Origin: a virus
Length of the DNA stretch: 16,114 bases
Reading direction: 5' to 3' (one strand)
Virus record (IMG/VR): IMGVR_UViG_3300046783_000031
Made by a program: the position numbers and the translations under genes
In this document: positions 8,801-16,114 of the stretch, piece after piece
How positions within the stretch are numbered: the stretch's first letter is position 1
Layout: each line of letters starts with the position of its first letter
The notes under the pieces: generated by a model
What the model was told of the DNA's origin: nothing
Databases searched by the model: none
Seen by the model: the letters and a program-made list of their open reading frames with translations, nothing else

Positions 8801-9056
8801 TGAACTGTTTGCTTCGCTCGATCTGCTGCTCGAAGTGCCGGGCGAGGTCGAGCAGCTGCGCTCGGATCAGGCCCAGGGCCGCGGCGTACTGCTCAGGCGT
8901 CGCTGTGGCGTCGATGAGCAGCGGGTGGGCGACCATCAGCCCGCGCCCGTTCTCCAGGATCACGAGGCTGAGCAGGGGCGGCGGGTCGTCGATGAGGCGC
9001 TCGAGGTCGTGAAGGTGGGCCTCCACTCGCTTGCGGTCCATCGCTGGCGAGGTCAT
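8787..9056 (-). CDS. Hypothetical protein (89 aa)
   Basis: The ORF has high GC3 and overlaps the upstream gene as ATGA. No recognisable motif. Confidence 0.55.
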   Translation of the reverse strand: MTSPAMDRKRVEAHLHDLERLIDDPPPLLSLVILENGRGLMVAHPLLIDATATPEQYAAALGLIRAQLLDLARHFEQQIERSKQFSEPR

Positions 9057-9745
9057 GACCCGTCCCCTGATGCCCGCTTCCGGGTCTCGTACTCGGCCCT
9101 GAACGTGGGGGGTGGAACGGGCTGTTCAGCGGGCGTATCCCCAAGTTCTTTCCCGGGGTCTTGTGAGCGAAGCGAACTTAGACCTTTGGAAACCGAAGGT
9201 TTGTGCGGCGGCTGGCCGTGCATCGGTTCGCCGTGCATCGGTTCGCCGTGCATCGGTTCGCCGTGCATCGGTTCGCCGGGGCTCGGTAGGTCACGCACGG
9301 CGCCACCTGGACGTTTGGCCTCGCGGGTCGTCTCCTTGACGTATTTACGCAGGTCGCGCCGTGCGTGGAATTCCAACGCACGGTCATCGTCGAGGCTCTC
9401 GAGTTTCTGACGCAGCCAGGCCTGGGCGACGTCGTGCGGGATCGACTCCTCGGCCGTGATGGTGAAGGTCACCACGGCGCTCCGATCGCCCGGCAGGTTC
9501 TTGGTGATCTGATGCCTGTAGCCAGCCTCGCCAAGCTGTTTCAGGGCCTTGAGGACTGCCTGTTGGCCAAGCCCACGACCCAGGAACGCCCGGTAGCCCT
9601 GGGGTGCGGATTCTGGGCGCGCGAGTATGTCGGCGAGCAGGCCGAGCGCGGGATAGTCGAGGCGCTCGTCACGGATCGTCGCATTGGGCAGCTCAGTCGT
9701 ACCCCGCTTGTAGTGGAACGACGTCTGCGGCTTCCGCGCCGTCAT
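9053..9745 (-). CDS. Winged-helix DNA-binding protein, possible replication initiator (230 aa), with an internal GEPMH x4 repeat
   Basis: The N-terminal region (..LDYPALGLLADILARPES..QQAVLKALKQLGEAGYRHQ..) resembles DnaD/phage-replication-type winged-helix domains. It overlaps the upstream gene as ATGA. A repeat-bearing linker is followed by a basic C-terminus. Confidence 0.5.
   Translation of the reverse strand: MTARKPQTSFHYKRGTTELPNATIRDERLDYPALGLLADILARPESAPQGYRAFLGRGLGQQAVLKALKQLGEAGYRHQITKNLPGDRSAVVTFTITAEESIPHDVAQAWLRQKLESLDDDRALEFHARRDLRKYVKETTREAKRPGGAVRDLPSPGEPMHGEPMHGEPMHGEPMHGQPPHKPSVSKGLSSLRSQDPGKELGDTPAEQPVPPPTFRAEYETRKRASGDGS
9216..9275. repeat. Four perfect tandem copies of the 15-mer CCGTGCATCGGTTCG (iteron-like), in frame within CDS 9053-9745
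   Basis: Counted directly as 9216-9230, 9231-9245, 9246-9260 and 9261-9275. On the minus strand each copy encodes GEPMH. Confidence 0.95.
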
Positions 9746-9963
9746 GTCGCCGGCTCAGACAGCAGGGCAAGGACGTCAGTTCGGCGGTACCGGGGGTGAC
9801 GGCCAGGAGTGACGTAGCGGGTGATCCGCCCTTCCTGGCGCCACCGGTCGAAGGTACGTGGGGCGACGCGTAGGAGCGCCGCGGCCTCGCTGCGCGTGAT
9901 CCACTCGCCCTCAGACGTGACCGTTTGTGCAGGTGGTATCGCTTTGTGTGGGCTTGGGTCCAT
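9742..9963 (-). CDS. Excisionase/MerR-family HTH protein (73 aa), Cro- or Xis-like first gene of the leftward operon
   Basis: WITRSEAAALLRVAPRTFDRWRQEGRITRYVTPGRHPRYRRTDVLALL matches the excisionase-type helix-turn-helix pattern. It is divergent from the repressor. The ATG lies close to the predicted transcription start. Confidence 0.7.
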   Translation of the reverse strand: MDPSPHKAIPPAQTVTSEGEWITRSEAAALLRVAPRTFDRWRQEGRITRYVTPGRHPRYRRTDVLALLSEPAT

Positions 9964-9971
9964 GCTTGGCG

Positions 9972-10000
9972 AAGATATCCATGTATGGATATACGGTCAA
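9972..10000 (-). promoter_or_regulatory. Leftward promoter (-35 TTGACC, 17-bp spacer, -10 TATCTT) containing the 18-bp palindromic operator ATATCCAT-GT-ATGGATAT (9975-9992)
   Basis: Read on the minus strand, TTGACC is the complement of 9995-10000 and TATCTT the complement of 9972-9977. ATG 9963 lies about 8 nt downstream of the -10. The perfect 8+2+8 palindrome fills the spacer and overlaps the -10. Confidence 0.55.
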
Positions 10001-10032
10001 CTATGGCAGGCAGTAGTCATAGTTAGTCATGC

Positions 10033-10551
10033 GTGGCTAAGATGGACGGCATGCCAGCTGTCGCAAAGCAGGATCCAGTCGATGCCGAGATCGGCGAGCG
10101 CCTGCACACATGGATGTGGCGGAATCGGGTGCCTCAGACGGGCTTCGCCGATGTCCTGGGAATCAGTCAGCAGTCGCTGGGGCGCAAGCTGCGCGGCGAG
10201 TCTGCCTGGTCCGCCGGCGAGCTACGCCGGGCGGGCGTTGTGCTGCGGGTTTCGATCGGGTGGTTCTTCGGTGAGACCGAGGAAGAGCCTGTGCGCCCGA
10301 AGGGACTCGAACCCCTAACCTTCTGGATGGGAGTTTGGCGCTACCTTCGGGTCGCCCTCCCCGGACGGCGTCGACCTGGTGGACACAGGGCGCCCTGGGC
10401 TACCGGACAAGGCGGCGTCGTCCGCATCACGTGCCCTCGATGCGGTCGCACGAGCTACAACCCGAACGACGCGCGCGAGGGTTACTGCGGCAACTGCCAC
10501 GACTGGACCGGCGGCGCCGTCCGCACCAGTGACCTGGAGCTGGCGGCATGA
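10033..10551 (+). CDS. XRE/CI-type repressor, viral (unintegrated) form of 172 aa: N-terminal HTH, attP-encoded segment, zinc-ribbon tail ending -LELAA
   Basis: The HTH motif is QTGFADVLGISQQSLGRKLRGE. The frame is open from GTG 10033 (alternative ATGs at 10042 and 10051). CPRCG..CGNC forms a Cys4 motif. The stop overlaps the next ORF as ATGA. Confidence 0.7.
   Translation: MAKMDGMPAVAKQDPVDAEIGERLHTWMWRNRVPQTGFADVLGISQQSLGRKLRGESAWSAGELRRAGVVLRVSIGWFFGETEEEPVRPKGLEPLTFWMGVWRYLRVALPGRRRPGGHRAPWATGQGGVVRITCPRCGRTSYNPNDAREGYCGNCHDWTGGAVRTSDLELAA
10292..10333 (-). other. Candidate attP core: 3' portion of a tRNA (anticodon loop region to discriminator), no 5' half
   Basis: The reverse complement reads CTCCCAT CCAGA AGGTT AGGGG TTCGAGT CCCTT CGGGCGC A. 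These are the loop, 3' anticodon stem, variable loop, T-arm with the canonical TTCGAGT loop, 3' acceptor strand and discriminator. The upstream bases cannot pair as the 5' anticodon stem. A tyrosine integrase lies 620 bp away. The tRNA identity is unresolved: the acceptor and discriminator look Arg-like, while the loop would read CCC if it belongs to the tRNA. Confidence 0.65.
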
Positions 10552-10946
10552 GCCGCGACCCGGGCACGCGACGGGTGGCCGCGGTGCTCGCCGAGCTGCT
10601 CGTGAAGGGCCTCATCCGGGATGAGGACGACCTCATCATCAACGTGCAGACCTACGAGCTGGCCATCGTAAGCAGCTCGGCGCCGACAGCACTGCGCGTC
10701 GCGCGGGACGTGATCCCCGAGCGCACCTACGACAAGCACGACAGCCCCGACAGAACGCACCACACCTGGGCCGGGAAGCGGGACGACGTGACGATACGGG
10801 TCACAGCCGTGCGGCCGCTGGGTGAGCCAGACCTGGTCGACCCGCTCGGCGCGGCGGATGAGGGCGACTACCTTCAACGGCTCATCGCGCTGGGCGTGGG
10901 TTGGGGGCCGTCCTCGACGGATCTGGCCGAGCTCGACGAACGCTGA
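10548..10946 (+). CDS. Hypothetical protein (132 aa) between repressor and integrase
   Basis: High-GC3 ORF, translationally coupled (ATGA) to the repressor ORF. It ends 7 nt before the int start. No motif recognised. Confidence 0.6.
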   Translation: MSRDPGTRRVAAVLAELLVKGLIRDEDDLIINVQTYELAIVSSSAPTALRVARDVIPERTYDKHDSPDRTHHTWAGKRDDVTIRVTAVRPLGEPDLVDPLGAADEGDYLQRLIALGVGWGPSSTDLAELDER

Positions 10947-10953
10947 TCAGGGC

Positions 10954-11868
10954 ATGAAGACGATGCGGGAGCCCACCCCTACGTGGGCGCGAGAGATCGA
11001 CGGTTACCTGACGGCGTTGAAGGGCGCGGGCCGAAGCCCTGAGACCGTGAAGGCGCGGCGGCAGCAGCTGCGGATGCTGGCCCGGTGGGCCGGACGGCGC
11101 AGCCCTTGGAACCTGAGTACCGATGACCTGCTGGAGTGGATGGCCTCGAGGGACTGGGCACAGGAGCGCCGGCGCTCGGTGCGCTCGACGTTGCAGGGCT
11201 TCTACCGGTGGGGCGTCGGCTCGGGCCGCACCGAGCATGACCCGGCGCAGTCGCTGCCGATCATCCGGGCGGCGGTGCCGCGGCCGCGGCCGTGCGACGA
11301 CGACGTGCTGCGTTCGGCGGTCAAGGCCGCGCCGGAACGTGACGTGCTGATGGTGCGCCTGGCGGCCGAGTGTGGGCTGCGCCGTGCGGAGGTGTCCCAG
11401 ATCCACACCCGGGACGTGATCGCGGGCTCGAAGCGGGGCCAGTACTCGCTGGTGGTCCACGGCAAGGGCAACAAGGAGCGGGTGGTGCCGTTGCCGCCGA
11501 TCCTGGCGAAGGAGCTGCTGCGCCGGCCGCGGGGCTTCGTGTTCCCGGGCCGCATCGACGGGCACCTCTCGGCGCGGTGGGTCGGGAAGGTCGTGGGCGG
11601 GTGGCTCGACCAGGGGTACACGATGCACTCGCTTCGACACTGGTTCTCCACGGTCACCTACGAGGAGACCAACGACCTGCTGGGCCTGGGCGAGATCCTG
11701 GGGCACGCGAGCCCGGAGACGACGCGGCGGTACGTCAGGCTCAGTGATGTCCGGGGGCGAGGCCTAGTCGCGACAGCGTCGTCGCGGCTGCTCGCCCTCC
11801 AGGTCGAGCCCGACCAGGCACCTGCCATGTCACCGACACGTCGGGGTGACATCGCCGCGACGGCCTAG
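10954..11868 (+). CDS. int: Tyrosine integrase (304 aa)
   Basis: Catalytic motifs are present: ECGLRRAE (Arg I), HGKGNKERVVPLP (Lys), HSLRHWFST (His-x-x-Arg) and LGHASPETTRRYVRL (His, Tyr). The N-terminus has a SAM-like core-binding pattern (WAREIDGYLTALKGAGRSPETVKARRQQL). The 44 codons upstream in the track ORF overlap the previous gene and are not counted. Confidence 0.9.
   Translation: MKTMREPTPTWAREIDGYLTALKGAGRSPETVKARRQQLRMLARWAGRRSPWNLSTDDLLEWMASRDWAQERRRSVRSTLQGFYRWGVGSGRTEHDPAQSLPIIRAAVPRPRPCDDDVLRSAVKAAPERDVLMVRLAAECGLRRAEVSQIHTRDVIAGSKRGQYSLVVHGKGNKERVVPLPPILAKELLRRPRGFVFPGRIDGHLSARWVGKVVGGWLDQGYTMHSLRHWFSTVTYEETNDLLGLGEILGHASPETTRRYVRLSDVRGRGLVATASSRLLALQVEPDQAPAMSPTRRGDIAATA
11827..11852. 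repeat. Dyad repeat family, diverged copy D (ATGTCACC-N10-GGTGACAT) inside the int 3' end
   Basis: ATGTCACCGACACGTCGGGGTGACAT matches 23 of 28 positions, in the same reading frame, with 12189-12216 of copy C. Confidence 0.7.
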
Positions 11869-11945
11869 GTCAGGGGCCCAATTCGGGCGTTAGGCCACAG
11901 ATCGTGAGATTAGGAGTTTGTCCGCCTGTATGACGACATGAGGAA

Positions 11946-11983
11946 GGCCAGGGCCTTGCCCTCCGCTGGGGCAAGGCCCTGGC
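11946..11983. terminator. Perfect 16-bp stem / 6-nt loop hairpin, candidate bidirectional terminator between int and the tandem-HTH gene
   Basis: GGCCAGGGCCTTGCCC tccgct GGGCAAGGCCCTGGCC. It lies in the 155-bp lower-GC intergenic region. There is no U-tract, which is common in high-GC actinobacteria. Confidence 0.6.
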
Positions 11984-12023
11984 CCAGGGCCGAACCGATG
12001 CGAGTTCCATTCTGGAGGATCCC

Positions 12024-12431
12024 TTGAACGCTGCTCAGTACGCCGACCACGTCGGCGCGTCCGAGCGCACGGTGCTGCGCTGGTTGAAGGCCGGCGAGCT
12101 GCCGGCGGCGACGAAGACCCCGGACGGCCGGTGGTTCATCCCGGCCGACGCCGTCCGGCAGGTCCGCTCCTCACCCGTGTCACCTGACATGTCAGTGACA
12201 CGTCAGGGTGACGTGGTGCGGGCGAACGGTGCGGCTGCGCAGCCGGCCAGCCTGGGCGAGGCCCTCGACAGGCGCACGGCGCTGCTGTCGCTGGAGGACG
12301 CCTCGACGCTGCTGGGGATCCCGGAGAGCGCGATCCGGCGGCACGCCGAGCAGCTCGGGGCGTTGCCCTGGGGGCCACGAGGCACGCTGGTGGTCCCGGC
12401 GCGCACGGTACGGAACCTCGCCGGGCTCTAG
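12024..12431 (+). CDS. Tandem excisionase-type HTH protein (135 aa, TTG start), candidate Xis/recombination directionality factor or regulator
   Basis: A GGAGGA RBS lies 4 nt upstream of the TTG. There are two HTH_17-like modules (ASERTVLRWLKAGELPAATKTPDGRWFIPADAV and ASTLLGIPESAIRRHAEQLGALPWGPRGTLVVPARTV). Their linker is encoded by dyad repeat copy C. Confidence 0.6.
   Translation: MNAAQYADHVGASERTVLRWLKAGELPAATKTPDGRWFIPADAVRQVRSSPVSPDMSVTRQGDVVRANGAAAQPASLGEALDRRTALLSLEDASTLLGIPESAIRRHAEQLGALPWGPRGTLVVPARTVRNLAGL
12175..12205. repeat. Dyad repeat family, copy C
   Basis: CCGTGTCACCTGACATGTCAGTGACACGTCA is identical to copy A at 30 of 31 positions. Confidence 0.9.
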
Positions 12432-15833: not shown

Positions 15834-16114
15834 GGTCCCACGACCAGGTCGCCGTAGGTCGGGAACGGCCCTTGCAGCGCGGCGTACGTGCCGTACGGGA
15901 CGAGGTCCTCGTACGTCCAGCCGGCGGTCGGGGCGAGGTTCCCGCTCGGGCGGGCGACCCGGTCGAACTGGACGGCCACGGTCCAGCGGCGCTCGGTGCG
16001 GCCGGTGGTCGTGCTGATCCGGGTGGTGTCGCCGTGGGTGAGGTCGGTGCCGGCCACGGTGAAGTACATGTCCAGGCTCAGCGGGTCGGAGTGGCGCAGC
16101 ATGAACACCTCGCC
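15830..16114 (-). CDS. C-terminal part of the Dit-like minor tail protein (same gene as 1-661; 15988-16114 duplicates 1-127)
   Basis: The frame runs to the window edge. The GTG shown as the start in the track (16108) is an internal Val codon of the junction-spanning ORF. Confidence 0.7.
   Translation of the reverse strand, partial: GEVFMLRHSDPLSLDMYFTVAGTDLTHGDTTRISTTTGRTERRWTVAVQFDRVARPSGNLAPTAGWTYEDLVPYGTYAALQGPFPTYGDLVVGP
15988..16114. repeat. Terminal overlap, copy 2 (identical to 1-127)
   Basis: Same comparison as copy 1. Confidence 0.9.

Follow-up and report, generated by a model that had tools for sequence, protein, structure and literature searches.

A tRNA-Arg-derived attP core inside the repressor gene of an uncultured ~16-kb actinobacteriophage: a probable integration-dependent immunity switch with accessory parts

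The IMG/VR virus record IMGVR_UViG_3300046783_000031 (16,114 nucleotides; this whole stretch is called the window) raises the question of whether a phage repressor gene is remodelled when its genome integrates. The gene, rep (open reading frame (ORF) 10033-10551), contains a segment identical to the 3' end of a tRNA and lies upstream of a tyrosine integrase gene, int. A first-pass annotation had read this arrangement as an integration-dependent immunity-type switch, and the reading stands: its hallmarks are present in the sequence, both states of the switch are seen in relatives, and the integrase (Int) is homologous to BPs-type integrases. We put the probability that the cassette is a BPs-type integration-dependent immunity switch of a ~16-kb temperate actinobacteriophage at about 0.85. 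Such switches were described as self-contained units of ~2 kb composed of int, rep and cro (PMC3694055). They comprise three genes without xis, place attP within rep, carry tags on Rep and Int alike, and have an operator that overlaps the lytic promoter (PMC3694055, PMC4557955). Our results do not change this principle, as the phage is a very small uncultured member of a well-described class. They extend it to an uncultured ~16-kb phage family, among the smallest temperate tailed phages, in which the switch occupies about one eighth of the genome.

The attP common core is a 34-nt segment (10292-10325, minus strand) with 34/34 identity to the 3' end of tRNA-Arg(ACG); in the tRNA it runs from the anticodon stem (3' strand) through the discriminator A. 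It was delimited by alignment to complete tRNA-Arg genes at prophage junctions. The tRNA was identified by an IMG/VR search with a repressor alignment, which led to prophages whose related repressor runs into a complete tRNA-Arg(ACG) on the opposite strand. The core lies inside the repressor coding sequence, as in integration-dependent immunity, and is read there in antisense as VRPKGLEPLTF. The tRNA fragment that the first-pass annotation had placed at 10292-10333, and for which it expected a matching host tRNA, is real, and tRNA-Arg(ACG) is the match over 10292-10325. Its true end is at 10325, the remaining 8 nt being an overshoot into diverged sequence. ARAGORN detected no tRNA gene in the window, and a complete cloverleaf was not found (Rfam tRNA 14.2 bits against a cutoff of 29). 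Both results are expected, because the 5' half is missing and only the 3' 34 nt are present.

The core ends within the switch codon, TGG for Trp98 (10324-10326, plus strand). The phage has G at 10326 where the host tRNA has A, so that integration would turn TGG into TGA and the prophage repressor would end at Phe97, with no host-coded tail. The short host-encoded tail that had been foreseen is not supported, since the first host base makes TGA and the protein ends in ..EPLTF. A single-base difference, G of the phage against A of the host tRNA-Arg, would decide whether the protein continues through Trp98 into a degradable tail or stops right behind its DNA-binding domain.

Both states are found in relatives. 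The identical 35-nt core occurs in 74 stretches of IMG/VR viral contigs, and the junction classes were drawn from these together with earlier core-bearing loci. The 5' part of rep and the core are followed by TGA and run on into the rest of tRNA-Arg in 15 distinct forms; 11 more end at the contig edge with A as the next base. Free forms, in which TGG or TGY and a tail of 8-75 aa follow the core, number 21, and most end in -AA. Junctions of the type host-core-tail were seen in 6 distinct forms. The switch codon is TGG or TGY in 21/21 distinct free forms and TGA in 15/15 distinct integrated forms. The same repressor was seen in both states in the locus pairs L027/L019, L049/L026 and L023/L015. 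Furthermore, a single prophage contig has both junctions: one end (L056) reads host, core, 35-aa tail and integrase, and the other (L084) reads rep5' and core within a complete tRNA-Arg gene, followed by tRNA-Ser. The integration geometry predicted for the window is matched exactly by these relatives, at an identical core.

The viral-form repressor ORF (10033-10551, plus strand; 172 aa from GTG 10033) was defined by its open frame, its homologues, Pfam and PHROG. It has a XRE/Cro-C1-type helix-turn-helix (HTH) domain of five predicted helices (aa 15-78, 10075-10266), with a predicted local distance difference test score (pLDDT) >85 over aa 12-80 in an AlphaFold model built on a 24-sequence alignment. 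Pfam (BetR, 1.2e-5 over aa 20-89) and PHROG (PHROG 2328 'transcriptional repressor', 9.4e-14 over aa 11-103) agree with the model. The HTH domain is complete and lies entirely upstream of the attP core. Disorder is predicted for aa 84-93, aa 111-128 (pLDDT <50) and the last 14 residues (aa 159-172). The G+C content at third codon positions (GC3) in the ORF frame is ~0.8 to 10300, falls to 0.60 over ~10300-10420 and is 0.8-0.93 over a zinc ribbon encoded in the tail. Most homologues begin with MPAVAKQ, which corresponds to ATG 10051 in the window, and a -10-like TAAGAT is found at 10038-10043; the true start is therefore likely to be ATG 10051. The viral form probably has 166 aa (ATG 10051) or 169 aa (ATG 10042) rather than 172 aa.

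The neighbouring genes have the expected order, with rep upstream of int on one strand and a cro-like gene diverging from a short operator-bearing region. The divergent gene is the first of the lytic genes and encodes a 73-aa HTH_17 protein of the MerR/excisionase type (9742-9963, minus strand; Pfam HTH_17 1.6e-8; PHROG 66, 'excisionase and transcriptional regulator', 3.8e-9). It is the positional equivalent of gp34 of BPs and Angel, a Cro or recombination directionality factor. A candidate early lytic promoter of the sigma-70-like type was recognized by consensus match (9972-10000, minus strand), with -35 TTGACC (10000-9995), a 17-nt spacer and -10 TATCTT (9977-9972). It was the sole promoter-like site found across 9700-12100, and its -35 GTCAA block is conserved family-wide. 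Between its -35 and -10 there is a candidate operator, the perfect 8+2+8 palindrome ATATCCATGTATGGATAT (9975-9992), with a chance expectation of 0.00 (200 shuffles). Relatives have different palindromes, such as CTATGCATACATGCATAG, at the equivalent position beside the conserved -35. The position is thus conserved and the sequence varies, which fits operators that co-vary with repressor specificity, and the repressor is predicted, by analogy with BPs, to bind the 9975-9992 palindrome. The intergenic region, given before as 69 bp and operator-bearing, does contain the palindrome; it measures 69 bp if rep starts at GTG 10033 and 87 bp to ATG 10051. A tentative rep promoter, P_rep (10014-10043, plus strand), has a -35-like TAGTCA (10014-10019) and a -10 TAAGAT (10038-10043) 7 nt before ATG 10051, and family members have a NANNAT hexamer 6-7 nt upstream of the ATG. 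The promoter scanner did not flag this site. With low confidence we suggest that it may be P_rep, in which case it would give a leaderless rep mRNA. No promoter-like site was found by the promoter scan between rep and int.

The tyrosine integrase gene (10954-11868, plus strand; Pfam Phage_integrase 7.6e-17; GC3 0.89) encodes 304 aa. The catalytic R, K, HxxR, H and Y residues are intact in the translation. The SAM-like core-binding domain starts at aa 15, indicating that Int has no arm-binding domain. Besides a direct repeat that flanks the ribbon segment, no repeated candidate arm-type motif was found in the attP flanks, which is weak evidence of absence. In integration-dependent systems an N-terminal arm-binding domain is missing from Int, and arm-type sites are missing from attP (PMC3694055, PMC9635641). 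The integrase of the window shares 42% identity, over 88% of its length, with the gene 32 product of Cluster G mycobacteriophages such as Angel and Liefie. Among isolated phages the closest integrase is that of Curtobacterium phage Barebow (44.7% identity). The anatomy first noted from the sequence was borne out, with small corrections: an ORF with an N-terminal XRE-type HTH, a frame open past the core through a low-GC3 stretch and a Cys4 ribbon to the end ..SDLELAA and an ATGA overlap, a tyrosine integrase following, and a divergent Cro/Xis-like HTH gene.

The switch that we propose would work as follows. On infection, the rightward promoter would transcribe viral-form rep, a 132-aa ORF (ORF132) and int as one unit. 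The viral repressor would consist of the HTH domain, a disordered linker, the Cys4 ribbon and the terminal ..DLELAA. Because this end resembles an ssrA tag, host AAA+ proteases such as ClpXP should remove the viral repressor, and the leftward lytic operon would stay on. If Int accumulates, the 34-bp core (10292-10325) would recombine with the 3' end of the host tRNA-Arg(ACG) gene. The tRNA would be rebuilt at the rep-side junction, where G at 10326 would be replaced by A and the Trp98 codon TGG by the stop TGA. The junctions expected are rep5'-core-TGATCCGTAGTCAGATGC... for attL and host-core-GATGGGAGTTTGGCGC... for attR. The prophage would then make a tag-less repressor of 91-97 aa ending in ..EPLTF, predicted to bind the palindrome overlapping the leftward promoter and so to confer immunity. 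The tail, ORF132 and int would go to the far prophage end, separated from P_rep.

Several observations weigh against this reading. No integrated copy of the phage or of its ~16-kb family was found, and the search for integrated copies that had been proposed earlier succeeded for relatives with the identical core and failed for this phage and its close family. An attL-specific pattern (rep ..W[FL][FY]GE.. followed by the core and TGA) had 0 matches in viral, metagenome and genome collections; its free-form version, used as a control, matches 9 family loci. Scans specific for the P' arm gave free, already known genomes only, and 0/22 close protein homologues is a truncated form. A search of genome contigs with the repressor alignment was swamped because every tRNA-Arg gene matches, and the matches listed did not yield a host. 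Furthermore, the cassette has four genes in 2.13 kb (9742-11868) and not the canonical three (int, rep and cro), the fourth being ORF132 in the interval from rep to int. The promoters and the operator were assigned by pattern matching. Finally, the Int C-terminus, ..GDIAATA, is weakly tag-like, with relatives ending in ..DIAASA and others in ..PTKH or ..RAIA. As no integrated family member was found, the truncation of this particular repressor is a step that we infer.

The missing prophage could also mean that the cassette is a relic in a family that no longer integrates, being effectively lytic or extrachromosomal and on its way to the int-less state of Arthrobacter Cluster AN. No integrated member was present in three collections, though free ~16-kb genomes recur in many samples, and the Cluster AN phages retain an HTH gene resembling rep at the syntenic place but have neither int nor core. 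We consider a relic unlikely. The core matches the tRNA at 34/34 positions, Int keeps its catalytic residues and a GC3 of 0.89, and conservation of the degron extends over 31 distinct tails. Junctions between prophage and host are difficult to assemble from metagenomic data, and the host may be unsampled.

Among the matches listed from the genome-contig search there were a contig of a Microbacterium metagenome-assembled genome, with a distant rep-like gene and the core, and a contig of Micromonospora sp. LOL_024 (L124, NZ_JBHMIS010000074), with three tRNA-Arg 3' fragments within 1.8 kb (5460, 6647 and 7204). One of the three adjoins an integrase C-terminus, and they are probably stacked att remnants of successive integrations. 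Two independent Logan contigs of this phage (L118 and L119) begin exactly 30 nt before the core end. They were considered as evidence of integration and rejected, as a 30-nt overlap is k-1 (k=31). This overlap shows only that the sample contained a host tRNA-Arg; the contig start marks an assembly-graph branch between TGG of the phage and TGA of the host tRNA.

The tail that only the viral form would carry bears on the role of the full-length protein. Its end, DLELAA with the stop codon (10531-10551, plus strand), is an ssrA-like C-terminal degron conserved in the family, and the stop overlaps the ORF132 start (ATGA). Actinobacterial ssrA tags end in ..YALAA or ..FALAA. The viral form has, in its sequence, an ssrA-like C-terminal tag of the kind found in integration-dependent systems. 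The protein family of the window includes 22 repressor homologues, every one metagenomic; these retain VRPKGLEPLTFW, and nearly all terminate in DDLALAA. Pooling protein homologues with loci gave 31 distinct family tails of 8-76 aa, of which 23 end in LAA and 4 in LTA. Conservation of LAA as a by-product of the overlapping ATGA start or ribosome-binding site was rejected, because L003 keeps the motif with the next gene 50 nt later; the motif is not a mere by-product of the overlap. By analogy with BPs (PMC4557955), the viral form would be removed by proteolysis.

One might instead suppose that the repressor is a conventional one, whose full-length 172-aa protein works in immunity, and that attP lies inside its gene without regulatory consequence. 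The long open ORF, the high GC3 over the ribbon and the fact that no truncated form was seen in its own family would fit. We regard this as very improbable. Any integration at the core must break the gene in two, and the host base puts a stop directly after the HTH. The tail is highly variable in length and content except for the terminal ssrA-like motif, and relatives with the same core exist truncated in prophages. In addition, the Cluster G integrases to which Int is homologous belong to relatives of BPs, an experimentally characterised system.

The comparison with known systems supports the BPs-type switch and shows where the window departs from it. As in BPs and other Cluster G phages, attP lies inside rep, which is read in the same frame across the tRNA-derived core (..VRPEGFEPPTFC.. 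in Angel and ..VRPKGLEPLTFW.. in the window). In both, rep precedes int, and a short control region with a palindromic operator, a candidate one in the window, separates rep from a divergent HTH_17-type cro gene. BPs pairs a longer, tagged viral form with a prophage form that stops right behind the HTH domain, and the same pair is predicted for the window. Angel gp33 reads ..EEVRPEGFEPPTFCLGAT...LDKAS, with a sense codon where the tRNA supplies TGA, and Angel gp34 and the divergent gene of the window are of the same HTH type and position. The differences are the extra 132-aa gene between rep and int; a tail of 75 aa with a Cys4 ribbon in the window against 33 aa in BPs; the end ..LELAA, closer to a true ssrA tag than ..LDKAS of Angel; the annotated Angel Int, ~95 aa longer than that of the window; and the genome, 16 kb against 41 kb. 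The window system, unlike BPs, is known from its sequence alone.

Among small genomes, the nearest precedent is provided by the temperate Gordonia Cluster CW phages GMA5, GRU3, Jeanie and McGonagall (Pope et al. 2017, PMC5559632). They have 14-18 kb siphophage genomes with an integration-dependent immunity cassette, and in GMA5 an additional ORF without known function, gene 18, stands between int and rep (PMC5559632). A very small genome, immunity of the integration-dependent kind and an additional ORF in the rep-int interval have therefore been reported together before, in this cluster (PMC5559632). The terminase of the window is ~28% identical to that of the Gordonia small-genome phage Schiebs. 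However, the attP of Cluster CW corresponds to tRNA-Lys (PMC5559632) and that of the window to tRNA-Arg, no zinc ribbon has been reported for Cluster CW, and neither ORF132 nor the 92-aa ORF that replaces it in the sibling genome L002 has a tblastn match in a deposited phage.

Two other isolated phages carry a related core. The annotated immunity repressor of Mycobacterium phage Cracklewink (MK977701) contains the identical 35-bp core, rep overlaps int, the tail ends in ..CDAA and a gene named 'excise' is divergent. It differs from the window in its 77-kb genome, in having a Cys and not a Trp codon after the core, in a 30-aa tail without ribbon, in having no gene between rep and int, and in a repressor N-terminal domain of a different subfamily. 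The identical tRNA-Arg(ACG) core is thus common to very different actinobacteriophages, including a 77-kb mycobacteriophage. Barebow (PQ868957, 18.3 kb) is, like the window, small; its gp19, encoded immediately before Int, keeps the same frame through a tRNA-Arg-like core, reading ..GVRSKGLEPPTFC...RRAS, and has a sense codon at the place of the TGA in the tRNA. It differs in that gp19 is annotated just as a helix-turn-helix DNA-binding protein and in having neither an extra ORF nor a ribbon.

The Arthrobacter Cluster AN phages Toulouse, Maggie and Decurro (PMC5513430) resemble the window in genome size and in the order of HNH, HTH protein, MerR-like HTH, divergent rep-like HTH and lysis genes. 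Their rep-like protein is 35% identical to the window repressor over aa 11-108. They differ in having no integrase, tRNA core or tail, and are described as lytic (PMC5513430). They look like int-less derivatives of the window phage type. In Arthrobacter phage Toulouse (L126, KU160670; 1781-2053) the rep-like HTH protein ends in ..AVRPNVARV*, about where the attP core sits in the window. The divergent repressor and cro-like genes around an operator-bearing region recall CI and Cro of lambda. In contrast to lambda, the window has no CI C-terminal dimerisation/autocleavage domain, no cII/cIII and no arm-binding Int domain, and its immunity is predicted to depend on recombination itself.

The accessory parts are a ribbon in the tail and a gene after it. 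The first segment of the tail (10327-10410, plus strand) is a linker with low GC3 (0.60) and a family-conserved LGRRRP motif, mostly disordered according to pLDDT. It is followed by a 33-codon stretch (10411-10509, plus strand) with a Cys4 zinc ribbon (Cys134, 137, 152 and 155, at 10432-10497), predicted by AlphaFold as a moderately confident small domain over the four cysteines (pLDDT ~75), directly before the disordered tag. No Pfam family cutoff was reached by the ribbon, which weakly resembles the L37e and S27a ribbons. A sequence of the form ..ITCPRCGRTSYNPNDxREGYCGNCHDWTG.. recurs with 80-93% identity at the N or C termini of at least 25 small proteins that are otherwise unrelated; in 3/3 cases with context checked, the gene lies within a small-gene array of a phage-like contig. 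A Cys4 ribbon is present in 11/31 distinct family tails, in 5 sequence types, which suggests repeated acquisition or retention. The 99-nt ribbon stretch is flanked by an imperfect 19-nt direct repeat, one copy opening it (10411-10429) and the other directly after it (10510-10528). The sibling L002, 98-99% identical to the window in structural genes and flanks, nevertheless has no ribbon: it matches the window to 10380, differs over 31 nt, lacks the next 99 nt and then rejoins it in the same GGAVRTSDLELAA end. A 12-nt inverted repeat, CGGACGGCGTCG / CGGCGCCGTCCG (10362-10373 and 10512-10523), brackets the ribbon segment. It may be an Int-binding site, an RNA structure or merely the coding of the conserved LGRRRP motif; CGGACGGCG(T/C)CGA is kept in the P' arms of relatives. 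In L011 (1111-1964) the repressor tail is just WSVLEAAA, and the overlapping next ORF opens with a CxxC..CxxC ribbon and then reads ..DQDLAAM; it looks as though a frameshift had joined what was once a viral tail to the gene behind it.

ORF132 (10548-10946, plus strand; GC3 0.87 in its own frame) starts in the ATGA overlap with the rep stop, an arrangement of translational coupling. A word-indexed search found only the protein itself, in identical copies in 8 contigs, and an exhaustive phmmer search of 1.84 billion representatives found three relatives with 43-46% identity. All three overlap by 4 nt the stop of a XRE-type HTH gene, in the same slot, and sit upstream of a tyrosine integrase, which is unconfirmed for the truncated P0051 contig. 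In two of these cassettes the sequence is readable and has a tRNA-antisense segment from a different tRNA (..RDSNPEPAD..) and an alanine-rich C-terminus, the tails ending in ..DDLAQTA and ..FGVAA. The family was found only in the slot between rep and int. ORF132 has no Pfam or PHROG match and no tblastn match in any deposited phage. Its single-sequence AlphaFold model, an alpha/beta fold (pLDDT 69.6), has no Foldseek match in the PDB below 1e-3. A nucleotidyltransferase fold was considered and rejected, as the look-alikes reach template-modelling (TM) scores of ~0.3 and conserved catalytic motifs give no support.

The slot between rep and int is prone to recombination. In each member of the family it is occupied by one or two small ORFs: L002 carries an unrelated 92-aa ORF in place of ORF132, and other members have unrelated ORFs of ~90 aa and ~103 aa. 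The 92-aa ORF has no phage match and cannot be equated with GMA5 gp18. Between L002 and the window the region 10553-11939 is mosaic, from the repressor tail to just past int, and the two are 96-99% identical elsewhere. The int of L002 is 86% identical to that of the window and is followed by an extra gene of ~105 aa. We conclude that the zinc ribbon and ORF132 are accessory modules of this recombination-prone slot, dispensable for the basic switch. Both the ribbon and the ORF132 family are real and recurrent, if uncharacterised, accessories that the nearest sibling does without. The suggestion that the extra gene and the ribbon lie outside the described cassettes holds in part. The gene has a precedent in GMA5 gene 18 (PMC5559632), and for the ribbon a full-text literature search on integration-dependent immunity and zinc found no description in such tails.

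The basic switch may hold with functional additions, in which the ribbon would tune unfolding and degradation of the viral repressor or bind a host factor or RNA polymerase, and ORF132 would be a pre-integration factor acting on Int or on the lysis/lysogeny decision. In this direction point the five ribbon types among 11 of the tails, the conservation of the type-1 ribbon (80-93%) in unrelated small proteins of phage-like contexts, its predicted fold immediately before the disordered tag, and the 3/3 ORF132 relatives coupled to repressor-like genes, two of them readable and with another tRNA segment. Furthermore, the authors of the BPs work raised the possibility that the 33 additional residues of the viral form serve to activate P_rep (PMC4557955). 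However, a sibling 98-99% identical to the window does without ribbon and ORF132 and has an unrelated 92-aa ORF instead, 20/31 tails have no ribbon, some tails are just 8-15 aa long, and ORF132 has no family, domain or significant fold match. We regard such roles as possible and rather doubtful. With the same reserve one may speculate that the viral-only tail is a functional module, its ribbon setting the ClpXP unfolding rate or recruiting a host partner and so tuning the lysogeny frequency, and that the slot genes are expressed only while the phage is unintegrated. If this were true, site-specific recombination would switch off a small establishment-phase regulon besides truncating the repressor. 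The near-identical siblings with and without ribbon and ORF132 are a natural experiment on a disposable tail that might set lysogeny frequency.

The window is a complete genome of a ~16-kb temperate small-genome actinobacteriophage. Its ends (1-127 and 15988-16114) form an identical 127-bp direct repeat, which points to a circular assembly with a real genome of ~15,987 bp (16,114 bp minus the 127-bp overlap). The minus strand is filled with genes for portal, capsid and tail proteins, an amidase, an HNH protein and the terminase. This terminase shares 27-36% identity with those of small-genome actinobacteriophages of Arthrobacter, Gordonia and Microbacterium (15-17 kb), and the genome agrees in size and in its related large terminase with the 14-18 kb siphophages of the RRH1, Cluster AN and Cluster CW type. 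Deposited phages have no DNA-level match to the window except the single 35-bp stretch. Close relatives of ~16 kb recur across several metagenomes (L002, L003, L005, L007-L011 and L117). The 34-bp attP and the 304-aa Int are compact parts for actinobacterial integration vectors.

Two further features of the genome were observed. Within ORF 9053-9745 (minus strand) there is a perfect 15-nt tandem repeat of 4.3 copies (9215-9278), which encodes (GEPMH)n in a 230-aa DNA-binding protein (PHROG 1456) of the early leftward operon. Downstream of int, a second HTH_17 gene (12024-12431; 135 aa) is kept in every family member. It matches PHROG 22141, is weakly similar to the small-terminase PHROG 57, and may encode an excisionase, a small terminase or a regulator.

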